64,000 nucleotides of DNA from positions 142,289 through 206,288 of the forward strand of contig DAOVJY010000001.1 in assembly GCA_030632085.1 (NCBI GenBank), given 5' to 3'. Of this stretch, positions 9,036 to 26,369 are shown one piece after another. Each line of letters opens with the position of its first letter. Within the stretch, counting starts at the first letter, position 1. A program made the translations under genes and the position numbers. The DNA comes from Candidatus Omnitrophota bacterium. Lineage in GTDB: Bacteria; Omnitrophota; Gorgyraeia; JAGLLT01. The notes beneath the pieces were generated by a model that saw only the letters and a list, made by a program, of their open reading frames with translations, searched no databases and was not told the origin of the DNA.

Positions 9036-9079
9036 TTAATATACGAACTTCATTTTTTAAGGAATCTTATATTGCATTT

Positions 9080-9279: not shown

Positions 9280-9315
9280 TATCCATTGCTATAAGCTCTT
9301 GCTATCAATATTAAC

Positions 9316-10210: not shown

Positions 10211-10229
10211 AAAGGTGTCTGTCCCCTTT
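10211..10229 (+). repeat. Family-A hairpin copy
   Basis: 11 nt from the PEP-CTERM gene stop. Confidence 0.9.
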
Positions 10230-10240
10230 TAATTAAAAAC

Positions 10241-11239
10241 CTATTCTTTTAACTTTTTCCTCAATCCAAAAACTCCAAACAACCCCGCGCCTAAGAGTAA
10301 AATGGTCGAGGGTTCAGGGACAGCATAAACGTCTATCCTGTTTATAAAATAATCGCTTTCTTCCATTAACATATCCAAATCATTTATATATCGAGGAAGA
10401 AAAGTATCATACGTATACCAACTGGTCATTGGAGGCACGGCAGATACCGCAGAATGAACACCAAATAGCGTCAACTCCCCGCCCCATAATACAAAGGTTG
10501 GACTGCTAGAATCTCCTCCCACGGCCCCGGCATTATCAGGATAGCCGGGATCTGGACCTAAACGATTGTAGTTTTCCTCGCTACGAAAAAGGGAAGAAGC
10601 ATATAATGTCTGTTCATAGGCATTAGCAGGGCAGTGATAACCAAAACTACCTATTTCATTATTGCGTCCTACCTGCGCGCCTTGGCCATAAAGATATATA
10701 TTACTTTCAACTTGCGCACCGAGAGAGGTTCCCCACCAGTTTACATCATAATAAGGAGAACTTGGATCATCGGTATCCAGAATAGAATAGTGGGAAATCT
10801 TGTCAGCCTCAGACACAGTTTCACTAAGCCAACCAAGGGCAAGATCACAGGGATGAGAACCGAATTCATTAACATTGTCAATAACGCGGGAAGAATATTT
10901 ATTAACTGTATAAGATTTCAGTTGCCCTTCTCTGTTTATGAAGTTAATTGTGTTTCCAGTGGGCACTTTCCAGTGATTGGCGCAAACAAAATGTTGCGGC
11001 GATACCATTGTCACGCTGCGCGATGACATGCCCATGTCCCACCCTACACCCGACCAGTCATATTGTGAAGCAAAAAAATCAGGGTTGTTTACAGGATTAC
11101 CGGCATATGTTCCCGGATTAAACCTGTCATGCCGAGCGGGATTATACCCGTTTATTTGCAGGGCTTGAGCGTTTGCGGAATAACCAATACCCAGAAATAG
11201 TAAGAAAATCGCTGTCCATTTAGGTAAATTCATATACAT
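10241..11239 (-). CDS. PEP-CTERM sorting-signal secreted protein
   Basis: An N-terminal signal peptide is present. The C-terminus VPEPSTILLLGAGLFGVFGLRKKLKE is a VPEP motif followed by a TM helix and a basic tail. Confidence 0.75.
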   Translation of the reverse strand: MYMNLPKWTAIFLLFLGIGYSANAQALQINGYNPARHDRFNPGTYAGNPVNNPDFFASQYDWSGVGWDMGMSSRSVTMVSPQHFVCANHWKVPTGNTINFINREGQLKSYTVNKYSSRVIDNVNEFGSHPCDLALGWLSETVSEADKISHYSILDTDDPSSPYYDVNWWGTSLGAQVESNIYLYGQGAQVGRNNEIGSFGYHCPANAYEQTLYASSLFRSEENYNRLGPDPGYPDNAGAVGGDSSSPTFVLWGGELTLFGVHSAVSAVPPMTSWYTYDTFLPRYINDLDMLMEESDYFINRIDVYAVPEPSTILLLGAGLFGVFGLRKKLKE

Positions 11240-11426
11240 AACTTTCTCCAGTATTAAAAAAACACAAAGAAGTAAACAAAACTATATCAATTATAACAGA
11301 AAGATACAGGTTATCAAGTGGAGAAATTTTTCTTATTTAGGGAATATATTGCTGTATGCTATATAAGCTATTGAAGAAATTTAGGAAATTAGTAGCGTGA
11401 TTGAATGTGTCAATTAAGGGGTACTT

Positions 11427-11448
11427 AAGGGAGGTGACCCCTTTTTAA
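11427..11448 (+). repeat. Family-B hairpin AAGGGAGGTGACCCCTTTTTAA
   Basis: 17 nt from the RRM2 stop. Family-B copies at 13139-13160, 24396-24415 and 25136-25158 read AAGGGAGTTGACCCCTTTTT. Confidence 0.85.
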
Positions 11449-11465
11449 TTTCCTTTTTAATTTTG

Positions 11466-11714
11466 CTATGCCTTTTTGTCTTCAGCTTTTTTAACACGGA
11501 TTTTATTGCTGGCAACTTTCTTATTGTTCAAGCTTTTTATCGCAAATTTGGCTTCTTCTGGTTTCAGCATTTCAACAAAACCAAAACCCTTGGATCCACC
11601 GGTGGATTTATCTAACACCAAATCACAAGATTGTACGGCGCCATATTCTTCAAAGAGAACTTTTAATTCTTCTTCGGTAGTACTACGAGCAAGATTAAGA
11701 ATTATTAATTTCAT
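11466..11714 (-). CDS. RRM-domain RNA-binding protein (short, no Gly tail)
   Basis: LIILNLARS (RNP2) and KGFGFVEM (RNP1) motifs are present. It is a paralog of the gene at 7785..8201. Confidence 0.8.
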   Translation of the reverse strand: MKLIILNLARSTTEEELKVLFEEYGAVQSCDLVLDKSTGGSKGFGFVEMLKPEEAKFAIKSLNNKKVASNKIRVKKAEDKKA

Positions 11715-11757
11715 AAGTTAATACCCCTTTAAGTATCTAGTGATTCCACAGTATCGT

Positions 11758-11777
11758 AAAAAGGGGTCTGTCCCCTT
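11758..11777 (+). repeat. Family-A hairpin, perfect-stem variant
   Basis: It lies between the stop of 11834..12148 and the RRM2 start. Confidence 0.85.
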
Positions 11778-11833
11778 ATTCGAGTGGAAACCCTTCATTA
11801 TTGATTTGAGTTTTAACAGTTACTATTATGGTG

Positions 11834-12148
11834 TCAATATTCATTTGCTTCAGTATATGCTGCGTTTATGCCCTCTTTATAATATTGAACGATTTCACTA
11901 TTCAAATCTGCCTTAGTTTGAGTTGTCAAAGCACAATGTAAATCTGACCATATAGTATAAAGATATCCGGCAGATATTCTTAAATTTGACCACCCTTCAT
12001 TGTAATATCCTTTGTCAATATAAGAACTATTTTGAAAGTATTTCTTCCTGAAACTTGCTAATTTTCGGTTCCAACTATGAGACCATTCCAACCAGTCTTT
12101 TTCGTACATTACAAAATTATTTTCTTTGGTACTGTACTTATGAATCAA
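11834..12148 (-). CDS. Hypothetical protein (W/Y-rich), TTG start
   Basis: ORF-track ORF. Manual extension (my base indexing was not exact) suggests the frame stays open about 230 nt further upstream without an ATG. Confidence 0.35.
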   Translation of the reverse strand: MIHKYSTKENNFVMYEKDWLEWSHSWNRKLASFRKKYFQNSSYIDKGYYNEGWSNLRISAGYLYTIWSDLHCALTTQTKADLNSEIVQYYKEGINAAYTEANEY

Positions 12149-12339
12149 ATCATTATAAAAAAATTCTAGTTCATTAATTGCAACAAAAAGTTCCTTTTTC
12201 TCTGGGTCATGTTTTTTAATGTTTTCTTCTAGATTTTTAACGTAGTTTTTACTGGGAAAGATAAAAGTATTGGAATCTGCTTCTATTGTATTAAACTGGT
12301 AATTTCTGAAATCAATTTGTTTAGTATAAGAATCTATTT

Positions 12340-12999
12340 TTATATTTTCTCCATATTTTCCAATTTTTTCATAGATGTTTTTTCCTCATTTGTCATTTTG
12401 TAATTTTTAATCACAAATTTTTTGTCAAAATACCATTGACTACCAGTGTACAAATGTAGTTGATATATACCTTGAGGAAGAAATTTATTATCACGGGTTC
12501 GCATTTCAATAAAACCTTTTAATCGACCAGCTTCTACTTTAATTTTATTAGTATCTGTTGCTATATATTTATTGGTTGGTTTCAAGTTAGCCTCTTGTAC
12601 ATTAATAAAAAACTCTAAACCATTTGGTAGATCTGTTTCAATAAGAAATTCTATTTTGTCAAAGCTTGTTTGCTCTACATTGACAAAATTTAACATAGTG
12701 AAAGGTTTTTTGCATTGTTTTTCTTGTTTTTTAACATTGTCTATTTTGTAATCAATTGTCTTTACTTTTTTTGTGGCTACAGAAGGTGGTAAATTGGCTG
12801 AATAAACAATAATACTTACAAAAGTAGTGACTATTGTAGATAAAAAGCAAACTTTAAAAACTCGTCCACGAGTCCGATGTTTCTTATTGCCCCACCACAA
12901 AACAAGTTTAGGACTTAGCATTCCTAAAATGAATGCGAAAAATAAAAAAATATATACATGCACCGTATAGTTGGCAATTGTATATCTTATATCTTCCAT
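12340..12999 (-). CDS. Membrane-anchored hypothetical protein
   Basis: Two N-terminal TM helices precede a soluble domain. No family was recognised. Confidence 0.4.
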   Translation of the reverse strand: MEDIRYTIANYTVHVYIFLFFAFILGMLSPKLVLWWGNKKHRTRGRVFKVCFLSTIVTTFVSIIVYSANLPPSVATKKVKTIDYKIDNVKKQEKQCKKPFTMLNFVNVEQTSFDKIEFLIETDLPNGLEFFINVQEANLKPTNKYIATDTNKIKVEAGRLKGFIEMRTRDNKFLPQGIYQLHLYTGSQWYFDKKFVIKNYKMTNEEKTSMKKLENMEKI

Positions 13000-13138
13000 T
13001 TTAACCCTCCATTTACTATGTCATAAAAACGAAATCACCAGTCGAAAAGCGCAGCTTTTTAGTCAGTTGGATTAGTTTGTTAGGATTTTTCTGTTTCTTC
13101 TACTTTTAATATTTCTTCGTTTTTTTTAGGGATCTATT

Positions 13139-13188
13139 AAGGGAGTTGACCCCTTTTTAATTTTAGAATTAAAGGGGTCTGTCCCCTT
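13139..13188 (+). repeat. Tandem family-B plus family-A hairpins followed by (CCTTAT)n
   Basis: B at 13139-13160, A at 13171-13188, then CGTCCCCTTATCCTTATCCTTATCC. Confidence 0.85.
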
Positions 13189-13231
13189 ATCGTCCCCTTA
13201 TCCTTATCCTTATCCATTCTTATAATTACAC

Positions 13232-13699
13232 TTAGAAATTCGTCGTTTTACTTAATTTATTAATTAATTTTTCTGAATTTATTACTTTGAATCTTTGTCC
13301 CAATGTGTTTTCAAACCAAAAATTTACATGATCGGATTCATTTCCTTCCGGATCAATAATATGTAAATCTTCCAAATAGACAGAGGTTTCATATTTTTCA
13401 TGTTCACCCAATCTGACCCCTTTTCCCTCTTTACCTATATGCGTTCCACAGTAACCACCTTCGCTCAAATTTCCACCAAACATAGTCAAGATTACCGGTC
13501 TCCTACCGCAATTCACAATTTTAATAGCTATATGAGCACGATCATAACTAGAATTATAAGGGTAAAATTTAGCATGTGTTTTTAAATGGGCCCTGTCACG
13601 AAATCCAAAATAACCCGATATCGCTATGCTTGTAATAGAAATTATTAGTGCAGCTATTGAAACATAATCAGATATCTGCATATTTTTTTCTCCTAACAT
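13232..13699 (-). CDS. Hypothetical protein with N-terminal TM anchor
   Basis: 155 aa. The RBS leader TTAGGAGAAAAAAATATG is shared with other cassette genes. Confidence 0.4.
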   Translation of the reverse strand: MLGEKNMQISDYVSIAALIISITSIAISGYFGFRDRAHLKTHAKFYPYNSSYDRAHIAIKIVNCGRRPVILTMFGGNLSEGGYCGTHIGKEGKGVRLGEHEKYETSVYLEDLHIIDPEGNESDHVNFWFENTLGQRFKVINSEKLINKLSKTTNF

Positions 13700-13844
13700 T
13701 CATGTATACCTGCCATTAGCCAAGCTTGATAGAACGCAGAAAAAGGGCAGGTGTAGTGCATTGTTAAATGTTTTTTAAATTTATTTGTTAATTGAAATGC
13801 TGAAAAATTAAAATCAGTTTTTTTCTTTTGAGGCACCCCTTCTT

Positions 13845-14315
13845 TTATCTCTTTTTACTAGGCTGAACTATCGTATTATAATCTTTTTCATCTATAGGAA
13901 TGATAGTCTTATTCTTAAATGCCATCCCAACATTGGGAGCAGATCTAACAAAATCCAAATTATCTCTTAAATTCTTTGTCCAAAAAACTGGAGGGTCCCA
14001 AATAGATTCAATCTTGAAGTCAATCTCAAATGGCCGATATTTATTATCACCTCTTGGCGCTCTTGTAGGTTCATGGGGTTCTCTTGTAATAATCGCCTCC
14101 CCAGAGAAATACTTCACTTTTTTGCTTTTATCGCTAATATAAAATAATATTTTATCTCCACTTCTTATCTTATTAATATGTGAATCAGTGCCAAGCTGCC
14201 AACTTTGATCTTTTTGTAGCTGTTTAAAACTACTTTCAGCATTATCAGCAATGTGTGGCAGAATCCAATATCTATTAGAATAGCCGTTCATAATCCACCT
14301 CCGCTTAATTTTCAT
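13845..14315 (-). CDS. Hypothetical protein, possibly PUA-like (EVE/ASCH-type) fold
   Basis: The RYWIL...W motif near the N-terminus is weakly similar. This is a low-confidence assignment. Confidence 0.3.
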   Translation of the reverse strand: MKIKRRWIMNGYSNRYWILPHIADNAESSFKQLQKDQSWQLGTDSHINKIRSGDKILFYISDKSKKVKYFSGEAIITREPHEPTRAPRGDNKYRPFEIDFKIESIWDPPVFWTKNLRDNLDFVRSAPNVGMAFKNKTIIPIDEKDYNTIVQPSKKR

Positions 14316-14364
14316 TATTTATCTAACGATTGAGCTCACCTGCCGCCGAACGAAGTGAGGGAAC

Positions 14365-14383
14365 AAAAACGCCGCGCGTTTTT
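14365..14383. terminator. Palindromic hairpin AAAAACGCCGCGCGTTTTT, a bidirectional terminator candidate
   Basis: Immediately 3' of the serine-protease gene. It is embedded in a CACCTGC...GCAGGTG outer inverted repeat. Confidence 0.5.
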
Positions 14384-14419
14384 GCGGTCAGGTGCAGCGT
14401 TTGGTTGAGCAAAACTTCT

Positions 14420-15313
14420 TTATTTTGTATGTGCCATATCTATTGTCTCCGCAATATAGAAAGCCGGAAGAATTGCTGCGAATTTTCCTCCAGTTGGATC
14501 ATTAAAAGTTCCATGCACTATTCCCACGCAATTAAAAGCCCCTTGTCCAGAAGACATAACCCCAATTTTTACACTTGAAAGTTTAAATACGGGAGCTCCA
14601 CTAAATCCAGCAACGCTTGGGTCATCCAAAATAAAGAATGAAGCTTCAGTATTATTATCAAATCTAGAATGTCTGAATAAAGCGCTAGCAGGGTGTGCTA
14701 CTTTCACTATTGGAGAGAATTTACCTTTGACACCCAATTCAAGAGGAAAACCAACTGTAGTCAAAAAGATATCTAAATTAGGAGCTGAATTCTCAATTGC
14801 AAGTTGGTCATATGAAACGGCACGTATTGCTGCTCTAAAATTCTCGGGAGGTGAAATCGGTAATACAGCAATATCAGCTTCATTATGCAATATCCATTTT
14901 GGTGCTTGCATACCAGCAAGTTCTGATAGATTGTAGGTAAGTGGTATACCATTAGCTCCATATACCGTTGCCTTAGAATCAAAAGGTATTCCATTGGAAA
15001 CATGACTTGCCGTTACAAGATACAAATTCGGCCCTTTGGACACAAAAAAACCTGACCCTGATGTAATTAAGTTTAGTGGCTCAGGATTTGTCTTGGTTTT
15101 TTTTATCCAGACTTCCACCTCTTCTCCATTAATTGTTGTCTTCTTTACTCCTTGATGTCCCTGAAGAAACACCACTGCAGGAAAAACATCGTGAGCGGTT
15201 TGAGACAAAACTTCCGTCGGGGCTGAAAGAAGACAGATTAGTATCAACATCATCCATAATGAATATCTTCCAACCATTTTAATCCTCCTGATCATCATAT
15301 TTGTGTCCAACAA
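14420..15313 (-). CDS. Secreted trypsin-like (S1/S1B-type) serine protease
   Basis: Signal peptide present. GSGFFV...LVTASHV contains the His motif and GFSGAPVF is the GxSGxP Ser motif. Confidence 0.7.
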   Translation of the reverse strand: MLDTNMMIRRIKMVGRYSLWMMLILICLLSAPTEVLSQTAHDVFPAVVFLQGHQGVKKTTINGEEVEVWIKKTKTNPEPLNLITSGSGFFVSKGPNLYLVTASHVSNGIPFDSKATVYGANGIPLTYNLSELAGMQAPKWILHNEADIAVLPISPPENFRAAIRAVSYDQLAIENSAPNLDIFLTTVGFPLELGVKGKFSPIVKVAHPASALFRHSRFDNNTEASFFILDDPSVAGFSGAPVFKLSSVKIGVMSSGQGAFNCVGIVHGTFNDPTGGKFAAILPAFYIAETIDMAHTK

Positions 15314-15461
15314 TTAATATATGGAATAGGTATTTTCTGGATATTTAATATCATACACATTTATATTACACCATCTGTTTAAATTTACAAGTTCATTTTT
15401 TTGCTTATATTCCGCATTTTATCCATAATATAAGGATATACGAAGTTCACAAATTAATCTA

Positions 15462-16193
15462 TCAATACCCAACCCTAACCAATACCAACCCACAGGCTTT
15501 GGCTGTGGGGCCAGCTTTGTTTCTGTCTTTGGTTTTGATTAATTCTTTAATAGTTCCTTTGGGGAATTTACCTCTTCCTATTTCAATAAGAGTTCCTATT
15601 ATATTTCTGACCATATTGTACAAAAAACCATTTCCTTCTATGGTGAAATATAGTTTATTTCCTTTTTTAGTAAAATTTGCTTTTGAGATAATGCGAACGG
15701 TATCCTTAGCCCTTCTTCCTGAGGCCTCAAAGCATTTAAAATCATGCTTGCCTAATAAATCTTTGGCTTCTTTTTTCATGAGGGGTAAATTAAGTTTATA
15801 AGGAATGTAGTTATAGTAATATCTTTCAAAAACACCCGGCTCTGTTAATGAAATTTGATACCTATAGGTCTTTTTCTTGGCGGAGAACCTGGCATGAAAG
15901 TCCTTATCAACTTTAGAAACACTTTTTATCCTGATATCTTTATCCAGAAGTGAATTAAGGGCTTTTTTAATTATGGGGGGTTTTATTATTGAGGTAGTTT
16001 TGAAGCTTGCAACCTGGCCTAAAGCATGAACTCCGGCATCTGTTCTGCCGGAGCCGTTAATCTTTATTTTTTCATTTAATATTTTACTTAATCTTCTTTC
16101 TATTTCCTGCTGGATGGTTTTTTGATGAGGTTGGATTTGCCAACCGGAGTAATGTGTACCATCATATTCTATTATAAGCTTGAAATTAGTCAT
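15462..16193 (-). CDS. truA: tRNA pseudouridine(38-40) synthase
   Basis: IEYDGTHYSGWQ and GSGRTDAGVHALGQV motifs are present. Confidence 0.9.
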   Translation of the reverse strand: MTNFKLIIEYDGTHYSGWQIQPHQKTIQQEIERRLSKILNEKIKINGSGRTDAGVHALGQVASFKTTSIIKPPIIKKALNSLLDKDIRIKSVSKVDKDFHARFSAKKKTYRYQISLTEPGVFERYYYNYIPYKLNLPLMKKEAKDLLGKHDFKCFEASGRRAKDTVRIISKANFTKKGNKLYFTIEGNGFLYNMVRNIIGTLIEIGRGKFPKGTIKELIKTKDRNKAGPTAKACGLVLVRVGY

Positions 16194-17190
16194 CTTTGAT
16201 TAATGCTTCTGCTATCTGCACGGCATTTAAGGCCGCACCCTTTCTGAGGTTATCAGCTACTACCCAGAGCCAAAGGCCTTCAGGCACAAAGGGATCCTTA
16301 CGAATACGTCCCACAAAGACATCATCAGTTCCTTCTGATTGATATGGCATAGGATAGCGTCCACCCTTTATATCATCAACCACTTTTACTCCCGGCTGAT
16401 TATTTAAAACCTCTCTCACCTCTTCAACTGAAAGCGGCCTCTCGGTTTCTATATAGATAGACTCGCTGTGCCCGGTCTTAACCGGCACTCTGATAGCGGT
16501 GGCTGAAATCTTAATATCATTATCATGAAGTATCTTATGAGTTTCATGGACAAGCTTCCATTCTTCCGAAGTATAGTCTAGTTCAGTAAATCCGCCTATT
16601 TGAGGAATAACATTAAAAGCTATTCTTTTACTTAAGGCCTTAATAGTTAAGTCTTTGCCATCAAGAAATTCAGCAGTCTGGCTATAAAGTTCATCACAAG
16701 CGCCTTGACCGGCACCTGAAGCCGCTTGATAGGTGCTGGCAATAATCCTCTTTATTTTAGATAGCTTATAAATAGGACTTAAAGCCACGACCATCTGAAT
16801 GGTTGAGCAGTTAGGATTTGAGATAATACCTTTATTGTTTTTAACATCAGCCGCGTTTACTTCGGTGACGACTAAAGGCACATCATCCTTAAGCCTGAAG
16901 TCAGCTCCATTATCTATGACTACCGCCCCTTCTTTTACCGCAGTTGGCGCGTAAGTAACTGAAGCTCCCTTCTCACCTTCGGTGCCGGCAAACAAGGCTA
17001 TCTCAATACCCTTGAAGGAATCATGGCTAATAGACTCCACCTGGTATTTAAAACCATCAAGCTCCATCTCCCGGGCACTTCTGGCTAAAACTTTCAGGGA
17101 TGCAATAGGAAAATTTCTCTCTTTAAGAATTCTTAAGATTTCTTTTCCAACGGCTCCAACGCCGACTACACATAGCTTATATTGTTTCAT
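16186..17190 (-). CDS. asd: Aspartate-semialdehyde dehydrogenase
   Basis: NAD-binding VVGVGAVG motif and the active-site NCSTIQMVVAL motif are present. Confidence 0.9.
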   Translation of the reverse strand: MKQYKLCVVGVGAVGKEILRILKERNFPIASLKVLARSAREMELDGFKYQVESISHDSFKGIEIALFAGTEGEKGASVTYAPTAVKEGAVVIDNGADFRLKDDVPLVVTEVNAADVKNNKGIISNPNCSTIQMVVALSPIYKLSKIKRIIASTYQAASGAGQGACDELYSQTAEFLDGKDLTIKALSKRIAFNVIPQIGGFTELDYTSEEWKLVHETHKILHDNDIKISATAIRVPVKTGHSESIYIETERPLSVEEVREVLNNQPGVKVVDDIKGGRYPMPYQSEGTDDVFVGRIRKDPFVPEGLWLWVVADNLRKGAALNAVQIAEALIKDD

Positions 17191-17270
17191 GTGTTTATCC
17201 TTTTATTAGCTCATAGTTCATAGTTATTAGCTCATAGCAAAAAATAAAAATCAAAAAAAGCTGATAGTTC

Positions 17271-17648
17271 TTAGTTGATAGTCTTTTTGATAGATTTTAT
17301 TAAACTTGAGAGCATTTTACCTATTTGACTACCAAAAACTTTTAATTCATTAAGCTGAGTTTCATTAATCCAATTCTTTTTTTGAAATATTATTAACAAA
17401 GCAATAGTCTCATACAAAGAACCACGAGCAAAATACAAAAACCGAATAAATTCTTTTTTTGAATATCGACCTTTACCTTCTGCTATATTCAGCGCTATTG
17501 ATGCGGTACAAGCTTCCAAATTTTCAATTAATCTGAAATGTTTTCTATCTGTATCAAGCTCGTCAATAGTGCCGATGACTTCTTCAGCGAAATTAACCGA
17601 CTTTTGCCAGACATCTAAATCTTCAAAACTAAATTTTGGGTTATCCAT
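17271..17648 (-). CDS. Four-helix-bundle protein (23S rRNA intervening-sequence protein / Avd-like family)
   Basis: DLDVWQKSVNFAEEV...RFLYFARGSLYE signature is present. The gene is flanked by inverted repeats at 17208-17238 and 17665-17695. Confidence 0.8.
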   Translation of the reverse strand: MDNPKFSFEDLDVWQKSVNFAEEVIGTIDELDTDRKHFRLIENLEACTASIALNIAEGKGRYSKKEFIRFLYFARGSLYETIALLIIFQKKNWINETQLNELKVFGSQIGKMLSSLIKSIKKTIN

Positions 17649-17691
17649 CTTTTTTGCTTGTCCCCATCAGCCATCAGCTATGAGCCATGAA

Positions 17692-18741
17692 CTATTTCAA
17701 ATTTTTAACTACTAAATCGCCGACTTCCTGGGTGGAATAACCCATCTTACCGGCTGATAAACTCTTTAACTGAGTAGTTGTTTTCATAACTGAAGCCTCA
17801 ACAGCTTTACCGGCTTCTTCCTCGCCTATATTTTCCAAAAGCATTCCCGCCGCGCAAATAGCAGCCAGAGGATTAATTACACTTTTACCTGTGTATTTGG
17901 GAGCAGAACCGCCAATGGGCTCAAACATCGAAACACCCTCGGGATTAATGTTGCCACCCGCAGCAATTCCCATGCCGCCCTGAATCATAGCCCCTAAGTC
18001 GGTTATAATATCCCCGAACATATTATCGGTGACAATAACATCGAACCATTCGGGATTTTTAATCATCCACATACAAGTGGCATCCACATGAGCATAATCT
18101 GTTTTTACATCAGGATAATTAGCAGCTAATTTGTTAAAGGTTCTTTCCCACAAGTCCCAAGCATAAGTTAGAACGTTTGTCTTTCCACAAAGAGTAAGCT
18201 TCTTTTCTTTATTTCTCTTCTGGGTGTATTCATAAGCATATCGAAGGCAGCGCTCAACTCCTTTATAGGAATTTCTAGATACCTGAATTGCGACTTCTTC
18301 TTCAGTGCCTTTATTTATAAATTCACCTTCACCTACATAAAGGCCTTCTGTGTTTTCTCTGACGACCACGAAGTCAATATCCTCAGGGCCCTTATCCTTT
18401 AAGGGAGATAAAACTCCGGGATATAACTTAACCGGCCTTAGATTAATGTACTGGTCTAATGAAAATCTTAACTTTAACAATAAACCCTTCTCTAAAATAC
18501 CGGGCTTAACATCAGGATGGCCTACAGCTCCTAAATATATCGCATCAAAGCCCCTTAATTCTTCTATGGCTGAATCAGCTAAGACTTCACCTGTTTTCAT
18601 ATATCTTTCGCCGCCGAAGTCGTAATTGGCTAACTCATACTTAAAGCCTTTTTTAGAAGCTATGGCTTCTAAGACCTTTAAGCCCTCAGCTACTACTTCC
18701 GGCCCTGTGCCGTCTCCCGGGATAACTGCTATCTTGTACAT
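17692..18741 (-). CDS. leuB: 3-isopropylmalate dehydrogenase
   Basis: The N-terminus [13 protein letters not shown] and the IDH/IMDH family fold are present, in a leu operon context. Confidence 0.85.
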
Positions 18742-18759
18742 TTTTTTCTCCTGTTGATT

Positions 18760-18903
18760 AAACTCTAAATTCTAATATCTAAATCCTAAATAAATTACAA
18801 ATTCTAATTTCAAAATTACAAAACAAAACAACTAATAACCGTTTTGAGTTTGGAGCATTTGAGTTTTGATATTACTTAGTATTTAGTGCTTAGTGTTTAG
18901 AAT
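18760..18903. repeat. ~145-bp imperfect palindromic element (CTAAATCCTAAA...TTTAGGATTT-like arms) between leuD and leuB
   Basis: The arms are homologous to the element at 40125-40285 (TAAATTACAAATTC, TTAGTATTTRGTGCTTAGT, TTAGRATTT). Confidence 0.6.
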
Positions 18904-19398
18904 TTATTTTTTTAGTGTCGCCATCAGGCCGCCGGCATCCATCACAGACTCAATGAACTTCGGAAACGGCTCTGTTTTATAAGTTTCATTTTTAGTTAAA
19001 TTTGTAATAATCCCTTTAGTTAAATCAACTTCCAGCTTGTCATGCTCTTTTATCTTATCCGCTTCAGGGCATTCTAAAATAGGTAATCCCATATTAATAC
19101 TGTTTCTAAAGAATATCCTGGCAAAACTCTTAGCTATAACACAGCTAATACCGCAGCCTTTAATGGCCATAGGAGCATGTTCTCTTGAAGAGCCACAGCC
19201 GAAGTTCTTTTTGGCAACTATAATGTCACCCTTAATGAGATTTTTATGAAAATCCTTTTTCTTATCTATAAAGCAGTATTTCGCAAGTTCTACGGCATCT
19301 GTCATATGTAAATGTTTAGCCGCAATAATCTCATCTGTATTTATATCATCTCCGAAAAGATGGGCTTTACCAGTTAAAACAAATTTATCTTTTTTCAT
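18904..19398 (-). CDS. leuD: 3-isopropylmalate dehydratase small subunit (short archaeal-type)
   Basis: LeuD/aconitase swivel domain, coupled to leuC by a 4-nt overlap. Confidence 0.85.
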
Positions 19399-20672
19399 TT
19401 TATTTCTCCCGGGTGTGTTATATGGCCTGTAATAGCTGAAGCCGCGGCTACGGCCGGATTTGATAAATAAACCTGGCTTTCTACATGCCCCATACGGCCG
19501 ACAAAGTTTCTATTGGTTGTAGCCAGGGCCACCTCACCCTTATCCAAAATACCGCAATGGCCGCCTAAACAGGGCCCGCAGGTAGGCATGGTAAAGACGC
19601 CGCCGGACCTAACAAAAATATCAACCAGGCCTTCTTTTATGGCCTCTAAATATATCTTCTGGGTTGCGGGAATAACTATTAAACGCATCCCCTTTTGAAC
19701 CTTTTTACCTTTTAAGATACCGGCCGCTTCTCTTAAATCACTTATCCTGCCGTTTGTACAAGAACCGATTACAACCTGGTCTAATTTAATCTTATTTAAC
19801 TTATTAACCGCTTTAACGTTTGAAGGCAGATGCGGACAGGCAACCTGCGGCTGCATATCCGAAAAGTCATATTCTAAAACCTCGCTATAAACAGCGTCTT
19901 TATCGCTCTTATAAAACTCAATATCTCTTTTGATACCGTTTTCTTTCATGCGTTCTTTGACATATTCTTTAGTTATTTCATCGGCAGTTATTATACCGTT
20001 TTTACCTCCGGCCTCAATTGCCATATTACACATGGTAAAACGGCCGTCCATGGACAGCTGTTCTATTACGGGGCCGGTAAACTCCATAGCTTTATATATA
20101 GCACCGTCAACACCTATTTGACCAATAGTGTATAAAATCAAATCTTTACCGCTAACCCATTTATTTAATTTACCTTTATAAATAAACTTAATTGTCTCCG
20201 GCACTTTAAACCAGACTCTTCCGGTCGCAAACGCGAATGCCAGGTCGGTTGAACCGACTCCGGTAGAAAACGCCCCCAGAGCCCCATAAGTACAGGTATG
20301 TGAGTCAGCTCCAATTACTAAATCTCCGGGTAAGACTAAACCCTTCTCAGGCAATAAAGCATGCTCGATACCCACTTGCCCAAGTTCAAAGTAGTTGGTT
20401 ATCTGATGCTTATCCGCAAACTCCTTTAACTTTTTACAGTTGGCGGCACTTTGCTGATCCTTTGCCGGTGTAAAGTGATCAGGCACTAAGGCAATCTTAT
20501 CTCTACTAAAGACTTTCTTAACTTTAGCCTTCTCAAACTCATTAATGGCAACCGGTGCGGTAATATCATTACCCAGGCATAAGTCTATCTTGGCGTCAAT
20601 AAACTCACCCGGTGCGATTGATTTCTTATTAGTGTGATTCAATAATATTTTTTCTGTTATTGTATAACCCAT
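19395..20672 (-). CDS. leuC: 3-isopropylmalate dehydratase large subunit
   Basis: Aconitase-family catalytic domain with Cys ligands (CTNGR, CGPC). Confidence 0.85.
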
Positions 20673-20689
20673 CTTTTTCCTTATATTTA

Positions 20690-21097
20690 TTATAGAATGA
20701 TTTCTATAGCGTGATATGGACAGATGTCAACGCAGAGCCCGCAGGCAATGCATTTACTCTTATCAAAGGTAACGGTCATCTTCTCTCTATTGACGCTAAA
20801 CGCTTTGGTAGGACAGATTCCAACACATGCCGTGCAGTGAATGCACTTCTTCTTATCCCATTTAATATCACTGGTTAACGATTGAGTATTAGCACCTATC
20901 TCATGTAAATACTTAAGGCCTTTCTCAAGGTCTTCTTTTTTACCTGTAAGCTCAACCACTAAAAGGCCTTCTTCGTTAGGCATTACTCTGGCCTTCATGA
21001 TGTTGACTATCAGGTTATAATCCTTTACCAGGTGATATGTTATGGGTTTTTCAACTAATTGATGCGGAAAAGTTATAACTACTCTTTTCTTGACCAT
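20690..21097 (-). CDS. NIL-domain / 2x[4Fe-4S] ferredoxin-domain protein
   Basis: [12 protein letters not shown] and [12 protein letters not shown] clusters follow a NIL-like N-terminal domain. Confidence 0.65.
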
Positions 21098-21233
21098 ATT
21101 TTCTCCTTAAAATTACGAGTTTATTATACACAGATTAGGAATTATTGGCAAGCTTTTTTAGAGAAAATAGTTGGATTGCGGCTAGGGCGCCTGAGCACCG
21201 CGTACCACTTCGTAGGTGGAAATAGATTTTAGG

Positions 21234-21262
21234 TTGAATATTCAGCATATCTTATGTATAAT
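21234..21262 (+). promoter_or_regulatory. Near-consensus sigma70-type promoter TTGAAT-17-TATAAT (TG-extended), upstream of mntA/hepT
   Basis: TTGAATATTCAGCATATCTTATGTATAAT. The same module appears at 22132-22160 (plus) and as reverse-complement copies upstream of minus-strand genes. Confidence 0.7.
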
Positions 21263-21351
21263 ATATATAGTTTAAAAAAGCTTTAAAAGAAAGCTTAGTT
21301 ACTAATTGGCAGATGGAAAAAAGATAAAATTTCAGAAAGTGTTCTAATTAT

Positions 21352-21621
21352 ATGATTACTGAATCTGATAAAAAAACAATTGAGGAAATATCTAAGCGAT
21401 ATCACGTAAAGCGTGTGATGATATTTGGGTCAAGCTTATCTTCATCCGAGGAAAGCCGCGATATTGATATTGCCGTGGAAGGAATTCCTTCGAAGGATTT
21501 CTATCGTTATTATGGAGATCTTATATTCGCTCTGTCAAAACCAGTGGATATTGTTGACCTTTCAGGTACATCAAAATTTTCAAAACTAATTAGGCAGGAG
21601 GGTACATTCCTCTATGGCTGA
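21352..21621 (+). CDS. mntA: MntA-type minimal nucleotidyltransferase antitoxin (HepT/MntA type VII TA)
   Basis: GS...SRDIDIAV nucleotidyltransferase motif is present. It is followed by a HEPN gene with an 8-nt overlap. Confidence 0.75.
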
Positions 21622-22029
21622 TTATAAAATACGTATTGAAGCTGAATATGAATCTATTGAAAAAACTATTTCTTCTCTTCCCGAAATACCTTTATCGCAA
21701 CTTTCAGAGCTAGAACTTGCCGGAGTAGCAGCCTTGCTCCATAATTTTATAATGGTATCGAAAATGTTCTAAAACAGGTATTTCAGAAATCAGGGTTCCA
21801 AATACCTCAAGGGGCATCCTGGCATAGAGATTTACTTCTTGAAGCTGTAGATAAAAAGATTATTTCTACCTTGCTTATGGATAATTTAAAACGTTTTTTG
21901 GCTTTCCGGCATTTTTTTGGACACGCGTATGCTTTAGATCTTTTTCCAGAGAGAATGGAACCTCTCGTTTCAGATTCCTCGAATGTATTCAAACAGTTTA
22001 AATCTGAAGTAAATAAAGCAATAGACTAG
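21614..22029 (+). pseudogene. hepT: HepT (HEPN) toxin interrupted by a -1 frameshift in a T-tract (~21746-21749)
   Basis: Frame 1 gives [45 protein letters not shown] then a stop. Frame 2 continues [15 protein letters not shown]...[12 protein letters not shown] with the R-x4-HxY HEPN motif. Inserting one T into TTTT restores [13 protein letters not shown]. Confidence 0.65.
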
Positions 22030-22042
22030 CAAACTATAAATA

Positions 22043-22061
22043 AAAGGTGTCTGTCCCCTTT
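22043..22061 (+). repeat. Family-A hairpin copy, 13 nt after the plus-strand hepT stop
   Basis: Same plus-strand orientation as copies following minus-strand genes. Confidence 0.9.
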
Positions 22062-22131
22062 AAACCCTTTAAAAGAGTAAATCACCTTCATTTGGTATAT
22101 ATTCAGGCTTACTTAAATCAAACGCATAAGT

Positions 22132-22160
22132 TTGAATATTCAGCGTATTTTATGTATAAT
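22132..22160 (+). promoter_or_regulatory. Promoter TTGAAT-17-TATAAT plus conserved leader to the GTG at 22228
   Basis: The leader ...AAAGTTCCTTAAAAAACGAAGTTTGTATATTTATTGTTAGGAGAAAAAAG is shared with the minus-strand copies. Confidence 0.7.
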
Positions 22161-22227
22161 ATATGTATACCGTTAAAGTTCCTTAAAAAACGAAGTTTGT
22201 ATATTTATTGTTAGGAGAAAAAAGAGA

Positions 22228-22494
22228 GTGACTAAAAAACTACAGATGGTATTAAGCAGATTGTTATTGGTTTGCGCTTTGTTAGTTTTGGCAGTTGTCT
22301 TCCATATGGTTCTTGTGGTTCCCAAAGCTATGTCGCAGGCAAGTGACATGGCAAGACAGCTTTCGGCTCCCGAGAAGTTCGTCTACAACCTTAGCGGCAT
22401 ATGCATCACATACTGGATTCTTATCATCCCGATTCTTGTTTTCATCGTAATTGGAGCAATAATCTGGGTGATGGTTTCGAGAATTGAAACATAG
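22228..22494 (+). CDS. Small membrane protein (GTG start)
   Basis: 88 aa with two TM helices. It lies about 65 nt downstream of a consensus promoter plus conserved leader. Confidence 0.45.
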   Translation: MTKKLQMVLSRLLLVCALLVLAVVFHMVLVVPKAMSQASDMARQLSAPEKFVYNLSGICITYWILIIPILVFIVIGAIIWVMVSRIET

Positions 22495-22721
22495 AAGAAT
22501 TCCGCTAACAACGCGCCGCAACAGATTCCGAAATGACGGAACCGCTGAGTTCAAACGCAAAATAATAAATAATATAGAAACGTACTATACGCTTAAAATC
22601 ATAGTATATATTTTTTATGTAGAATTATTGCGAGCTTTTTTAGATAAAACGTTAGATTGCGGCTAGATATCCTCCGCACCCTGTACCATTTCGTAGGTGT
22701 TATTAGAATGACAAATAAATA

Positions 22722-22740
22722 AAAGGTGTCTGTCCCCTTT
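22722..22740 (+). repeat. Family-A hairpin copy
   Basis: 72 nt from the stop of methyltransferase 22813..23517. Confidence 0.9.
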
Positions 22741-22812
22741 TCCCTTTTTCTTTTTATTGGAAAATATTTATTTTTAAGAAAAAAGGTTCTGGGTATTTTT
22801 TACCTTCATTTA

Positions 22813-23517
22813 TTATTGGAGGCGAACCCTCAACATTTCGTTTCCGCCTTTTTGAAATTCGTAAGGTACTTTCTTTATATCGACCACAAAACCGCCTTTT
22901 TCAAGTCTATCTACGACTGTCTCGAGATGTCTTGATTTTTTGGCTCCCAACTCCAACAGGGGAAATATCCTTACCTCAGATGCAACCCGACAAAGTTCTT
23001 CTATTGACTGAATATGAAAATCTTCTGAAAGGTGCTCGCTGTAGAGAAAGAGAAAGTGAGAACATAAGGCAATGTCAAATTCTCGAGCTTTGAATGGAAG
23101 TGTGGGCAAACTCGCGTCTACATAACGACCTTCCTTTAAACCTGCCACATAATCGGATAAGAAGTTGTTCATAGCAGCCATACGAACTTTGCCGAGTTCC
23201 TTAACTGATGAAATATGTCTCCACACAAACTCATTTTTGTTCTTTCTGGTCTGTTCCATGATCTCTTCATATGTTTCATCCATTCGATTTCTTATTTCAT
23301 CTGCACTGAAACGGTAAATCGGATCAACAGAAACTACATGGCCTCCACGATGTTTCATCATGCAATTAAAGCTTGCGGGACCGTCGCAACATCCCAGAAA
23401 CCGCTTCCTAAGCTCTTTTTTCGCTAAGGCAAACATTGCCAAATATTCGTTGAAGGATCGTCCCCAAGGAACTACTTTTTCCAAAGTGAAAGCCATCTTG
23501 CTTTTCCTATTTGCCAT
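22813..23517 (-). CDS. Probable class I SAM-dependent methyltransferase
   Basis: FLGCCDGPASF motif-I-like sequence and a distal FDIALCSHFLFL motif are present. Confidence 0.5.
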   Translation of the reverse strand: MANRKSKMAFTLEKVVPWGRSFNEYLAMFALAKKELRKRFLGCCDGPASFNCMMKHRGGHVVSVDPIYRFSADEIRNRMDETYEEIMEQTRKNKNEFVWRHISSVKELGKVRMAAMNNFLSDYVAGLKEGRYVDASLPTLPFKAREFDIALCSHFLFLYSEHLSEDFHIQSIEELCRVASEVRIFPLLELGAKKSRHLETVVDRLEKGGFVVDIKKVPYEFQKGGNEMLRVRLQ

Positions 23518-23584
23518 ATAACGGTTGAAATCACCTGCTTGAAAAATCGCACAGCGATTATTTCAAGTCAGGTGCATTGATTTG

Positions 23585-24139
23585 TTAGATGTCCCCTTTT
23601 AATTTTGTTTTATACAATAGACAACAATCCCATTCATCCAAAGAATAAACAGACATGCAGTCCAAGATAAATTCTTCCTTTGGAAAAGAACTGCCAAGAA
23701 GTTCTTCCATTGTTTTTTCAGAACCATCTGTGAATCTTGCAATTGAACAATGCGGAGTATAATGATGTGGGTTGTTATTAAATCTGAGATTTGTATCGAT
23801 TATCTTTTTCTGAAGCAATGAAAATGGTTTTAAAACTCTTGGCTCCAAATAGCACATTTTAGTATTTGGGAAATGAGTAATTCTTGAAAAAGCAGTTTTA
23901 ATAGGTGAAAAATTCTGTGCAATTTGTTCTAAGGTTTCGAAAACAAATGATGGTTTTTGATCATTTTTAAGTATTCCAACTCCAGATGACCCAATAATTG
24001 TTATTTCAACAGGAATTACTGTGCGTTGTTTCTCATATTGCATGCGAAGTGCCATAACCTTACTAGATACTGGTTCAGGTATATCTAAAACAACATATGT
24101 ATCGTGTTCAAATTTTTCCATATCTTTTGCACCTAACAA
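23585..24139 (-). CDS. Hypothetical protein (possible 2H-phosphoesterase-like fold, weak)
   Basis: HYTPHCSIARF is weakly H-x-T/S-x-like. The likely start is MEKFEH at about 24121. A conserved promoter/leader lies upstream. Confidence 0.3.
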   Translation of the reverse strand: MLGAKDMEKFEHDTYVVLDIPEPVSSKVMALRMQYEKQRTVIPVEITIIGSSGVGILKNDQKPSFVFETLEQIAQNFSPIKTAFSRITHFPNTKMCYLEPRVLKPFSLLQKKIIDTNLRFNNNPHHYTPHCSIARFTDGSEKTMEELLGSSFPKEEFILDCMSVYSLDEWDCCLLYKTKLKGDI

Positions 24140-24187
24140 TTAATATACGAACTTCGTTTTTTAAGGAATTTTAATATCTATGTCAAT

Positions 24188-24216
24188 ATTATACGCTGGT
24201 AGTGAGCAAGTTTCAA
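24188..24216 (-). promoter_or_regulatory. Promoter TTGAAA-17-TATAAT plus conserved leader for gene 23585..24139
   Basis: Reverse complement reads cagcTTGAAActtgctcactaccagcgTATAAT, then ...AATTCCTTAAAAAACGAAGTTCGTATATTAATTGTTAGGTGCAAAAGATATG. Confidence 0.7.
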
Positions 24217-24324
24217 GCTGAAATCCTATATTCTATTTCGTAATTTGTCTATGATATGCAGAGGATGTTGTTCGAGGTTAAACCTCGAACATACCTTGAA
24301 CATGAGTTTAGGATAAAATATTGT

Positions 24325-24341
24325 ATCACCGCGGCGGTGAT
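24325..24341. terminator. Perfect GC-rich palindrome ATCACCGCGGCGGTGAT
   Basis: Located between genes 24449..24847 and 23585..24139. Confidence 0.5.
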
Positions 24342-24395
24342 ATTAAGGGAATTAGGTTTGAGTTTGGGTTTGGGTAGTTGGAAGGTCTAAACTAA

Positions 24396-24415
24396 AAAGG
24401 GAGTTGACCCCTTTT
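24396..24415 (+). repeat. Family-B hairpin plus pyrimidine tract
   Basis: Followed by CCTTTTTACCCCTTTTCCTTTTTCTTTTCC. It is 33 nt from the stop of 24449..24847. Confidence 0.85.
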
Positions 24416-24448
24416 CCTTTTTACCCCTTTTCCTTTTTCTTTTCCTTT

Positions 24449-24847
24449 TTATGAATTTTCGACTTTCTTTTTGTTGGGTAAAAATCCAGAAATAACCCAG
24501 AGGATACCCAAGTACGAGATTACAGGAATAATTCCAAGCCCAAAAAACTCTGTCCAGCTTTGGCTCTTGCCCCGATAACTGCGATATGGTTCCAAGGCAA
24601 CAAAGAAACCCGCTACCCATAAAACTGAAATGAGCACAACGAGACGAATAGCGCCTTTGTTTCCTCTAATAATATGACCGCCAAGATAACTTAGGCCAAA
24701 TGACCCAATGGCTATGCCAGCTGTAATGGCAGAAATAAAACCCCAATCTTCAGATGAAGGTGGAGATCCAATCGCACTCACAATACCCACATAAATAATC
24801 CAGACAACTAAACAAGTGCCACAAATCCAAAAACTAATCTTTATCAT
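24449..24847 (-). CDS. Hypothetical integral membrane protein
   Basis: 132 aa with four TM helices. Confidence 0.45.
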   Translation of the reverse strand: MIKISFWICGTCLVVWIIYVGIVSAIGSPPSSEDWGFISAITAGIAIGSFGLSYLGGHIIRGNKGAIRLVVLISVLWVAGFFVALEPYRSYRGKSQSWTEFFGLGIIPVISYLGILWVISGFLPNKKKVENS

Positions 24848-24946
24848 TAAATATATCCTTTCACTTTCTCATACCAACTAATATAAGTATTTTTTAAACA
24901 ACCCCCTCATGCCGCTACCAGATGCCCTGGCTCATGTTCTCTCATA

Positions 24947-24965
24947 AAAGGTGTCTGTCCCCTTT
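24947..24965 (+). repeat. Family-A hairpin copy adjacent to oppF-3'-end remnant 1
   Basis: Directly 3' (plus coordinates) of the remnant at 24907-24943. Confidence 0.85.
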
Positions 24966-25135
24966 AAACCCCCTTTAAACCGTAATTTACCTATGATATG
25001 CAGAGTACGTTGTCCGAGGCTTAGCCTCGGACATAAAATAGCCTCGGAGGTGGTATGTGGGGATTAGGTTTGAGTTTGGATATTTGGTATGTTCTATGTA
25101 TAATGTATATCGGTGGGATTAAAGGTCTAAACTAA

Positions 25136-25158
25136 AAAGGGAGTTGACCCCTTTTTAA
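25136..25158 (+). repeat. Family-B hairpin copy
   Basis: Preceded by AGGTCTAAACTAAAA, identical to the sequence before the copy at 24396. Confidence 0.85.
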
Positions 25159-25387
25159 TAGCTTTTCATTAAAAGCATTTTGTTCGTTTGCAAGAAAATC
25201 ATGCAATTTAGTCATAGTTTATAGATAATTTTCATATAGCAACTTCTATTTATATTTATTTACAAGCAATTATAACATCATACGTAAGTATTATACACTA
25301 GCAGTAAATTAGTTTCAACCCCAAAAAATCACACCTTCGCCAGATGCTCTATCTCATGCTCTCGAAAAAAAGAAAAAAAGTATGATC

Positions 25388-25410
25388 AAAAGGTGTCTGT
25401 CCTCTTTTTT
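25388..25410 (+). repeat. Family-A variant (…GTCCTCTTTTTT), 50 nt from the dam stop
   Basis: AAAAGGTGTCTGTCCTCTTTTTT. Confidence 0.75.
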
Positions 25411-25460
25411 CACTACTACTCTTCCTATTCTTGGCATATATAGCTATTGCTATTTAATGT

Positions 25461-26369
25461 TTAGAATGTCAATAAATAGTCGCTGTCCCTATTTAAAAAT
25501 ACAGGGGATTTGAGTGCGCGCACAGAATCAACAAAATCTATTTCATCACAAAAAACAAGTAGCTCATTCCCAATCCTATTAGATGTAGATTGAGAAAGTT
25601 TATGTATAAGTTTGCTTTCTTTTGCATATAGATTCAAAATAAATTTATGTGTGTCATATGAAACTATCCATTTCTTGCGTAATTGATGGACTTTTTCAGA
25701 AAGTCTTTTATGATCTTCTTTTGAATAGAAATTCATATAGAGATTTGCACCTTGCTGACAATAAGGAGGATCTAAGTAAATAAATGTTTCTTCTTTTCTC
25801 TTATCAAGTTGTTTGATAAATTGAATGCCGTCAAAATTTGAAACTGAAATACGACTCTTAACAGTTTCCAATTTATGTATTCTATCAATTAAGTTCCGCT
25901 TATTAAATCTTGCATCAATTTTATATTTACCTCTCTGTTTAAGTCCGCCGATAGCACCACCTTTTATTATCCCAGAAATATTTGTTCTATTGAGAAAAAA
26001 AGTCGATTTGGCAAGTTCAAATAAACTAACATCATTGGCTTGTTTTTGAATATTTTTATACTTTTGCCAATTGCGCATACTAACCTTAACATTTTTAATC
26101 CAATCACAAAATTCATCTGGATAATCAATTACTGTTTTCCAAAAAGCATATATAGATATATCAAGGTCGTTTATATAAATATGATTTACATAACCTTCAA
26201 ATAACAATCTAAGTGCCAATCCTGCCCCACCTGCATATGGTTCTGCATAATTTATCCCAATTAAATGGTTTTCATAAAACAATCGGGATATAAATGGAAA
26301 TATACAATTCTTCCCTCCCGGATATCTCAATGGGGAATAAAACCTAGTCATATTACTTATCCTTTTCAT
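25461..26369 (-). CDS. Dam-family N6-adenine DNA methyltransferase (D12 class)
   Basis: RYPGGK, EPYAGGAGL (motif I) and YLDPPY (motif IV) are present. Confidence 0.85.
   Translation of the reverse strand: MKRISNMTRFYSPLRYPGGKNCIFPFISRLFYENHLIGINYAEPYAGGAGLALRLLFEGYVNHIYINDLDISIYAFWKTVIDYPDEFCDWIKNVKVSMRNWQKYKNIQKQANDVSLFELAKSTFFLNRTNISGIIKGGAIGGLKQRGKYKIDARFNKRNLIDRIHKLETVKSRISVSNFDGIQFIKQLDKRKEETFIYLDPPYCQQGANLYMNFYSKEDHKRLSEKVHQLRKKWIVSYDTHKFILNLYAKESKLIHKLSQSTSNRIGNELLVFCDEIDFVDSVRALKSPVFLNRDSDYLLTF

Follow-up and report, generated by a model that had tools for sequence, protein, structure and literature searches.

In a 64,000-nucleotide stretch of contig DAOVJY010000001.1 from a Candidatus Omnitrophota bacterium (the window hereafter, with coordinates counted from its first letter), a small gene for a 125-amino-acid protein lies between leuB and asd in a biosynthetic operon, as an earlier note on this DNA had described. 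Its open reading frame (ORF) occupies 17271–17648 on the minus strand and is flanked by leuB (17692–18741; PF00180) and asd (16186–17190; PF01118/PF02774); leuD and leuC lie upstream and truA downstream, and all of these genes, including leuB and asd, share the minus strand. The gene and the two inverted arms that enclose it form a unit, which resides co-directionally at the junction of two host genes in a spacer that is polymorphic among close relatives. Our best reading is that a cassette has been inserted in the direction of transcription at the leuB/asd junction of this Omnitrophota genome. On balance, and with modest confidence, we favour the view that it is a selfish cassette of the intervening sequence (IVS) type, residing in an mRNA operon instead of a ribosomal RNA (rRNA) gene and made up of a promoterless PF05635 gene between inverted arrays of the heptamer AGCTSAW.

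By its profile matches, the product is a member of the PF05635/TIGR02436 four-helix-bundle family, labelled '23S rRNA intervening sequence protein', to which the earlier note had assigned it. Both hidden Markov models match above their curated cut-offs: PF05635 with E = 7.7e-28 (97.3 bits against a cut-off of 33.8) in a full-length alignment that places residues 9–114 on profile positions 1–105 of 106, and TIGR02436 with E = 3.7e-28 (97.9 bits against a cut-off of 24). The SxxxNxxE motif that was pointed out for the family in PMC3936711 is present in its SxxxNxxE(G) form as S50-N54-E57-G58 and is invariant across the homologue alignment. A sequence search of the PDB returned two stand-alone four-helix-bundle structures, 2GSC (E = 1.3e-8) and 2RLD (E = 1.2e-5), with five chains deposited for each. 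Comparison with the PADLOC and PHROGs collections of defence and phage families gave no match, and pattern and tblastn searches of IMG/VR viral contigs found no relatives. Rfam gave 0 matches in the 64 kb at the gathering score and 0 in 17100–19000 at E ≤ 1, with no rRNA in either; the element, with leuB and asd as its neighbours and no rRNA in the 64-kb window, thus does not lie inside a 23S or 16S helix. A scan around the gene found no sigma-70-like promoter and no flanking intrinsic terminator, so the cassette appears to depend on read-through transcription.

The flanks of the gene are built largely of heptamers, and all of the features that follow are read on the minus strand. The 5′ arm (17664–17695) parses into about 4.5 AGCTSAW-type units, in the sense direction AGTTCAT GGCTCAT AGCTGAT GGCTGAT GG, and the leuB stop codon TAG (17692–17694) is part of the first of them. 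A leader from this arm to the ATG (17649–17663; sense GGGACAAGCAAAAAAG) contains a weak purine-rich ribosome-binding region and is followed by the four-helix-bundle gene. On the 3′ side, a proximal heptamer block (17259–17283; sense CTATCAACTAAGAACTATCAGCT) covers the last codons of the ORF and its TAA stop; it falls into direct-repeat family D2 with 17208–17230 (83%) and into inverted pairs I1 and I4 with 17673–17707, and Tandem Repeats Finder (TRF) also reports a repeat in this region, at 17262–17293. A T-rich spacer (17239–17258; sense TTTTTTTGATTTTTATTTTTT), which is not scored as an intrinsic terminator, separates the proximal block from the distal 3′ arm (17207–17238; sense GCTATGAGCTAATAACTATGAACTATGAGCTA), whose approximately 4.6 heptamers correspond, as reverse complements, to the type found in the 5′ arm and form part of inverted pair I2. 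The end of the element (17191–17206) carries the AAGGA ribosome-binding site of asd, the start codon of which lies at 17188–17190. TRF assigns a period of 7 to both arms, with 4.6 copies at 17207–17238 and 3.6 copies at 17664–17688.

The repeat strings reported in the earlier note lie at 17208–17238 and 17665–17695, as it had said, and its description of them as flanking inverted repeats holds as far as complementarity is concerned; they are not simple repeats, however, and are instead tandem heptamer arrays. The best ungapped pairing of the arms joins 17220–17238 to 17677–17695 over 19 nt with 84% complementarity, and RNAduplex gives the two sense-strand flanks an energy of −36.0 kcal/mol, compared with −17.3 ± 3.5 kcal/mol for shuffled flanks, none of 2000 shuffles being as low. 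The arms are thus microsatellite-like yet complementary, and this complementarity is imperfect but real. When the 510-nt transcript 17191–17700 is folded, the minimum free energy (MFE) and centroid structures both pair the outer flanks (z = −4.3), so that the stem with the ORF in its loop, which the note had proposed, is also what folding predicts.

The same layout recurs well beyond this genome. We detected 2077 homologues of the 125-residue protein, the best of them at about 70% identity and found in Nitrospirota, Planctomycetota, Desulfobacterota and other groups. Flanks were compared at 80 homologous loci from species-representative genomes (GTDB representatives) of more than 12 phyla, with Omnitrophota, Nitrospirota, Planctomycetota, Desulfobacterota, Bacteroidota, Chloroflexota, Ignavibacteria, Nitrospinota, WOR-3, Kryptoniota and one Syntrophoarchaeum metagenome-assembled genome (MAG) among the taxa. 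These loci are the best matches of a single clade (50–70% identity) and come mostly from MAG contigs, with two isolates, and the thresholds for array detection are arbitrary; the genome that holds the window was not one of the representatives scanned. Nearly every gene of the set has an (AGCTNNN)n array before it and the reverse complement of that array after it. The score of the upstream flank against the reverse-complemented downstream flank has a median of 17 for cognate pairs, compared with 7 for shuffles and 9 for non-cognate pairs, and at 69 of 74 loci the flanks are complementary above the 95th percentile of the shuffles. Among array periods, lag 7 was found 207 times, lags 5, 6, 8 and 9 between 11 and 37 times and lag 10 once, a 5- to 20-fold excess of lag 7 over other periods. 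More than half of the arrays (113 of 206) fall within 150 nt of ORF ends, a zone that makes up 5% of the sequence, and an array is present at 84% of the homologous four-helix genes as against 26% of the other gene boundaries in the same loci. As judged from these comparisons, the recurrence of the layout in more than 12 phyla marks a discrete, insertion-prone element rather than a chance repeat.

The arrays have a defined unit and a defined polarity. The consensus is A-G-C-T-[C/G]-[A>G,T]-[T/A], abbreviated AGCTSAW, and the arrays have a median length of about 30 nt, or about 4–5 units; reading inward from either end gives AGCTSAW for both arms, and the polarity is thus fixed and symmetric. 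The two arms of a locus covary, in that the variable positions 6–7 agree in 32 of 41 loci, compared with 12 ± 2.5 after permutation. A protein and its nearest relative have the same heptamer class in 32 of 61 cases, where 14.6 would be expected, and some of these pairs cross phylum boundaries; on this evidence, the type of protein and the type of repeat are passed on jointly across phyla. In these genomes, PF05635 genes of other subfamilies use other units, for example TAGGACA, CTTGTAA, TTTAGGA and AGTCTAT. The gene is co-oriented with its upstream neighbour at 70 of 74 loci, with its downstream neighbour at 69 of 73 and with both at 61 of 67, and the gaps to the neighbours, of about 85 nt, are mostly occupied by the arrays. 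Host operons vary between loci, without a functional theme. Co-orientation this strong speaks for transcription being important, for the ORF at least.

Two further loci show different arrangements. At one (L003:1100-1670), a divergent PF05635 paralogue, 36% identical, lies within direct arrays with a period of 8 nt (CAGCTTAC), an exception to the rule of inverted heptamers. At the other (L046:1700-5100), each of two divergent four-helix genes has ahead of it GATTTTC heptamers and a duplicate of the first ~35 nt, start codon included, of the ABC-type gene that lies downstream; this looks like serial insertion that duplicated the 5′ end of the target gene.

The homologues of its asd assign the window to Omnitrophota, and close relatives of this genome differ in the content of the very spacer that holds the cassette. 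In L090 and L091, whose asd is 86% identical to that of the window, the leuB–asd spacer is 62 nt long and contains no gene, with a short solo array retained. L092 and L086 (asd 93% and 91% identical, respectively) have the same 125-residue gene in this spacer, with the distal 3′ arm conserved in both and with 3.5 and 9 upstream heptamers, respectively, compared with 4.5 in the window. In L082–L085 and L087, on the other hand, the spacer holds a different four-helix subfamily with TTTAGGA-type repeats, even though identity to L086 over asd and the next 4 kb downstream is 99.95%, with one amino-acid difference in asd. The tract that has been swapped between L082 and L086 begins about 15 nt ahead of the leuB stop codon and ends with the start codon of asd, which it includes; this codon is ATG in one and GTG in the other. 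L088 and L089 have four-helix genes on both sides of asd. The one between asd and truA (L088:3973-4514) belongs to a third subfamily and is flanked by TAGGACA heptamers, the last of which contains the truA start codon; at this junction, occupied in L088, asd and truA of the window overlap by 8 nt. In more distant Omnitrophota, the leuB–asd position is either empty or holds arrays without an ORF.

Such ORF-less structures are also found elsewhere in the window. The 162-nt leuD–leuB spacer (18742–18903) is a hairpin with no ORF, built of the heptamers CTAAAnA / TnTTTAG (sense), and it ends in a new ribosome-binding site for leuB. It is missing from three relatives, in which this spacer measures 0–8 nt, and at this site in L092 there is another hairpin without an ORF, 99 nt long and of the GCTGATA type. 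The 3′ arm of the 18742–18903 hairpin is near-identical to the flank of the four-helix cassette of L082. About 15 ACAAGNN heptamers make up a solo array at 40020–40126, in an interval between convergent genes; ACAAGNN is the reverse complement of the array that flanks the class-B four-helix gene in L088. A second hairpin, of about 70 bp, adjoins this array (40127–40275); it consists of CTAAATN/TTTAG heptamers, and its right arm resembles that of 18742–18903.

The rates of substitution in the gene are informative in two respects. Its ratio of nonsynonymous to synonymous substitutions (dN/dS) is 0.06–0.23 in the pairwise comparisons of the window, L086 and L092, and by this measure the four-helix protein is functional and under purifying selection. 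Its synonymous divergence (dS) is 0.38, 0.15 and 0.36, compared with 1.25, 0.50–0.57 and 1.08 for asd/leuB in the same genome pairs; it is thus 3–4 times below that of the flanks, with a constant ratio of about 0.3 in all three pairs, and the tree of the gene is congruent with that of the flanks. Since the ratio is constant and the trees agree, we do not claim recent horizontal transfer from the low dS within this clade. We read the low dS as a slowed synonymous clock under vertical descent in a small clade, and this is a hint of nucleotide-level constraint on the ORF sequence.

The closest counterpart among known systems is the IVS in the 23S rRNA gene of Coxiella, which has two to three tandem GACAGAT heptamers, variable in number between strains, upstream of the S23p ORF, and which ends in an inverted-repeat stem that RNase III cuts at the start of the first repeat; it is regarded as a selfish element of unknown mobility (Warrier et al. 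2016, PMC4990558). Like the 23S IVSs of Coxiella and Leptospira, the window element encloses a homologous ORF within terminal inverted repeats, has no promoter-like site of its own and would rely on the host transcript for expression; as in Coxiella, heptamers lie just 5′ of the ORF in varying copy number (4.5, 3.5 and 9 here). They differ in that the rRNA elements occupy helix 25 or 45 of 23S rRNA, whereas ours lies in the spacer of an mRNA operon, that both of its arms consist of heptamers, of the type AGCTSAW rather than GACAGAT, and that RNase III cleavage has been demonstrated for the rRNA elements only. Genes of the 23S_rRNA_IVP family have also been found wedged within cas operons (Zhang and Ye 2013, PMC3936711) and at scattered rRNA insertion sites in bacteria of the candidate phyla radiation (CPR) (Tsurumaki et al. 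2024, PMC11270868). In the literature, curated TIGRFAM/InterPro descriptions excepted, we found no link between PF05635 genes and flanking heptamers beyond the Coxiella case. The earlier note had suggested a mobile IVS-like element outside rRNA, and this suggestion gains support from the presence, absence and replacement of the cassette in one spacer of close relatives, from the joint inheritance of protein and repeat type across phyla and from the variable heptamers upstream of S23p in Coxiella.

Arrays of heptamers without such a gene are known from several bacteria. Cyanobacterial short tandemly repeated repetitive (STRR) heptamers are abundant intergenic tandem arrays with lineage-specific units and unknown function. 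The TAACTGA repeats of Beggiatoaceae are likewise abundant intergenic tandem heptanucleotide arrays of unknown function (PMC4679880). Both resemble the arrays described here in being intergenic, in having a heptanucleotide period and in the lineage-specific sequence of the unit; they differ in that they are direct, occur in other host phyla and have no reported association with a four-helix gene. In the part of their paper that deals with such arrays in Geobacter metallireducens, Aklujkar et al. (2009, PMC2700814) describe inverted pairs of arrays, each of five heptamers, that lie between the genes of an operon, call them 'putative global regulator binding sites' and read them as sites for IHF/HU. 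Tandem 7-nt units in inverted pairs between operon genes are also what the window contains, and the Geobacter arrays (heptanucleotide or octanucleotide, for example at proB–proA and moaA–mosC, about 100 nt apart), as described there, have the architecture of the hairpins at 18742–18903 and 40127–40275; in that description they have no enclosed gene and no connection with PF05635.

Two other groups bear on how the ends and the protein might work. Foldback (FB) elements, miniature inverted-repeat transposable elements (MITEs) and the repetitive extragenic palindromes with their associated transposases (REP-RAYT) have inverted ends composed of variable numbers of tandem sub-repeats, and a few copies carry an ORF in the loop. 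The window element resembles them by analogy, in its inverted sub-repeat ends and in the many copies without a coding region, and its inverted heptamer arrays lie at both ends in the manner of the terminal inverted repeats (TIRs) of a transposon or MITE; these systems, on the other hand, are eukaryotic or derived from insertion sequences and have transposases and target-site duplications, neither of which is seen here. Avd, a component of diversity-generating retroelements (DGRs), is a pentameric, nucleic-acid-associated helical bundle. It is included in the PF05635 superfamily (PMC10053308), and thus shares its fold superfamily with the 125-residue protein; it differs in that similarity to solved Avd structures is undetectable at E ≤ 0.01 and in that the window contains neither a reverse transcriptase (RT) nor template and variable repeats (TR/VR).

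If the element is indeed an IVS-type cassette, it would be transcribed by read-through from the leu operon, and its arms would pair in the transcript to give an imperfect stem of about 30 bp, as in the predicted fold, with the ORF in the loop. By analogy with the 23S IVSs of Coxiella and Leptospira, RNase III would then cut the stem and release the mRNA of the cassette from the cistrons of the host. From its arrays and ends, the element would supply the neighbours with stop codons, a ribosome-binding site and sometimes a start codon, and the insertion would thus be tolerated. More speculatively, a pentameric, Avd-like protein might bind the heptamer arrays, with roughly one unit per subunit, and this binding might maintain or spread the element; we raise this idea because of the length of the arrays (a median of about 4–5 units) and because the units are specific to subfamilies.

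Several observations weigh against an IVS-type selfish cassette. No target-site duplication was found at the three junctions that could be compared in filled and empty form (leuB–asd, leuD–leuB and asd–truA), no catalytic domain is evident, and the sole gene of the cassette encodes a 125-residue helical bundle and no transposase. What exchanged the cassettes of L082 and L086 could have been ordinary homologous replacement via the flanking genes, and the constant dS ratio and congruent tree fit vertical descent as well as they fit transfer. Heptamer arrays are also common at other boundaries, and given this 26% background they are not exclusive to the PF05635 gene; some divergent PF05635 paralogues, moreover, have no arrays or lie within direct 8-mer arrays. 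The mismatches between the arms, counted on the sense strand, comprise 91 G·U, 126 A·C and 199 transversions, without an excess of G·U, and so do not support RNA pairing as the selected property, although the comparison of G·U with A·C is a weak test because the pairing register is ambiguous in periodic arrays. The complementarity could equally reflect symmetry at the DNA level or concerted evolution of the arrays. This last point leads to the main rival, which we regard as clearly less probable: a foldback or TIR element whose inverted arrays act on DNA, as a cruciform, as a single-strand hairpin or as sites bound by a host factor or by the four-helix protein itself, the copies with and without an ORF corresponding to autonomous transposons and MITEs and the RNA stem being a by-product. 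Such an element would account for the lack of a G·U bias on the sense strand, where transversions are as common as transitions, and for ends that both read AGCTSAW inward, a symmetry expected of ends that are seen by one protein. It would also fit ORF-less hairpins newly inserted where relatives have 0–8 nt, whose arms are near-identical to sequence that flanks, in a relative, a four-helix gene at a different locus, the polymorphic copy number of the arrays and the joint travel of protein and heptamer type across phyla. The lack of target-site duplications in the three filled/empty comparisons counts against this rival too, as does a 125-residue helical bundle that has no known nuclease or recombinase fold and no relatives in PADLOC or PHROGs, and the strong co-orientation with host genes is not required by it, though selection for expression could add it. 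From sequence alone, an RNA-level and a DNA-level element are inseparable.

The remaining explanations are less probable. A domesticated regulatory module, in which the protein is a host regulator that binds RNA or DNA and the arrays are operators that tune leuB/asd expression or mRNA stability, with nothing selfish about it, would agree with the strong purifying selection, with the agreement between the trees of gene and flanks in three relatives and with arrays that lie exactly at cistron junctions, where they provide a ribosome-binding site or a start codon; the paired inverted arrays of Geobacter metallireducens, where the relevant part of PMC2700814 proposes them as sites for a global regulator, could be taken in the same sense. 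We nevertheless consider it unlikely, given a spacer that is empty in L090 and L091 and is occupied by another subfamily in strains with 99.95% downstream identity, host operons that differ by locus with no common function, and several divergent paralogues with different repeats per genome. The superfamily membership of Avd is what speaks for a remnant or accessory (Avd) gene of a DGR, a link that the earlier note had raised and that did not stand: no TR/VR-like long direct repeats occur in the 64 kb (the longest, at 30–62 nt, are unrelated to the locus), none of the 20 ORFs of 289–414 amino acids in the window has an RT (RVT) domain, no relatives were found in IMG/VR viral contigs, and the only proteins returned by the PDB search, 2GSC and 2RLD, stand alone. 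We therefore reject a DGR origin on the lack of long direct repeats in the window and of an RT among the 20 candidate ORFs, and give it very little weight. Least probable of all is microsatellite noise produced by slippage, with accidental complementarity around an ordinary small gene. The arms are indeed low-complexity runs of heptamers, with a best ungapped match in the window of just 19 nt at 84%. The note had named CTCATAG microsatellite noise without complementarity as what would undo its proposal; complementary flanks at 69 of 74 homologous loci, together with the dominance of period 7, the covariation of the arms at variable positions and a duplex energy that 0 of 2000 shuffles reach, refute such noise as the explanation.

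Other features of the window may be mentioned here. A 19-nt motif (AAAGGGGACAGACACCTTT, minus strand) occurs in 8 copies within 7759–25415 and comprises a 5-bp stem that closes a loop of 9 nt, with T residues after it; its copies recur 3′ of small genes, one of which encodes a PEP-CTERM protein, and it may be a lineage-specific terminator or a REP-like motif. Conserved non-coding modules of about 55–62 nt form the pairs 21165–21226 / 22646–22707 (76% identity) and 24239–24293 / 24981–25035 (84% identity); together with further shared blocks (21231/22129/25073), they are situated upstream of small genes, match no Rfam family and could represent an undescribed family of leaders or small RNAs. 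Finally, a D12-class N6-adenine DNA methyltransferase (25461–26369) adjoins a 414-residue ORF without a Pfam match, and the two may be a restriction-modification pair.

The origin and movement of rRNA IVSs and the role of their conserved ORF have been open questions since about 1990. Our findings at this locus and its 80 relatives show that the IVS-type ORF normally travels with a defined nucleic-acid partner in the form of inverted heptamer arrays and that this unit colonizes mRNA operons across phyla, and they join the Coxiella heptamers, the Geobacter paired sites and the IVP genes in cas operons into a single picture. For annotation, they call for caution, in that such spacers may be mobile insertions able to supply a stop codon, a ribosome-binding site and a start codon to essential neighbours. 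A broader proposal, which we put forward only tentatively and consider doubtful as yet, is that PF05635 proteins are the dedicated partners of pan-bacterial, occasionally archaeal, 'heptamer-array foldback' elements, each subfamily with its own 7-nt unit. If it is true, one unit would be bound per subunit of a pentamer, and the protein would serve in this way to maintain or protect a cassette resident at cistron junctions, or to spread it. A single class would then take in, as members or as relics, the 23S and 16S IVSs, the ORF-less hairpins found in Geobacter and Omnitrophota and perhaps also arrays of the STRR kind. This would provide a function for a very large 'hypothetical' family as well as an origin for rRNA IVSs.

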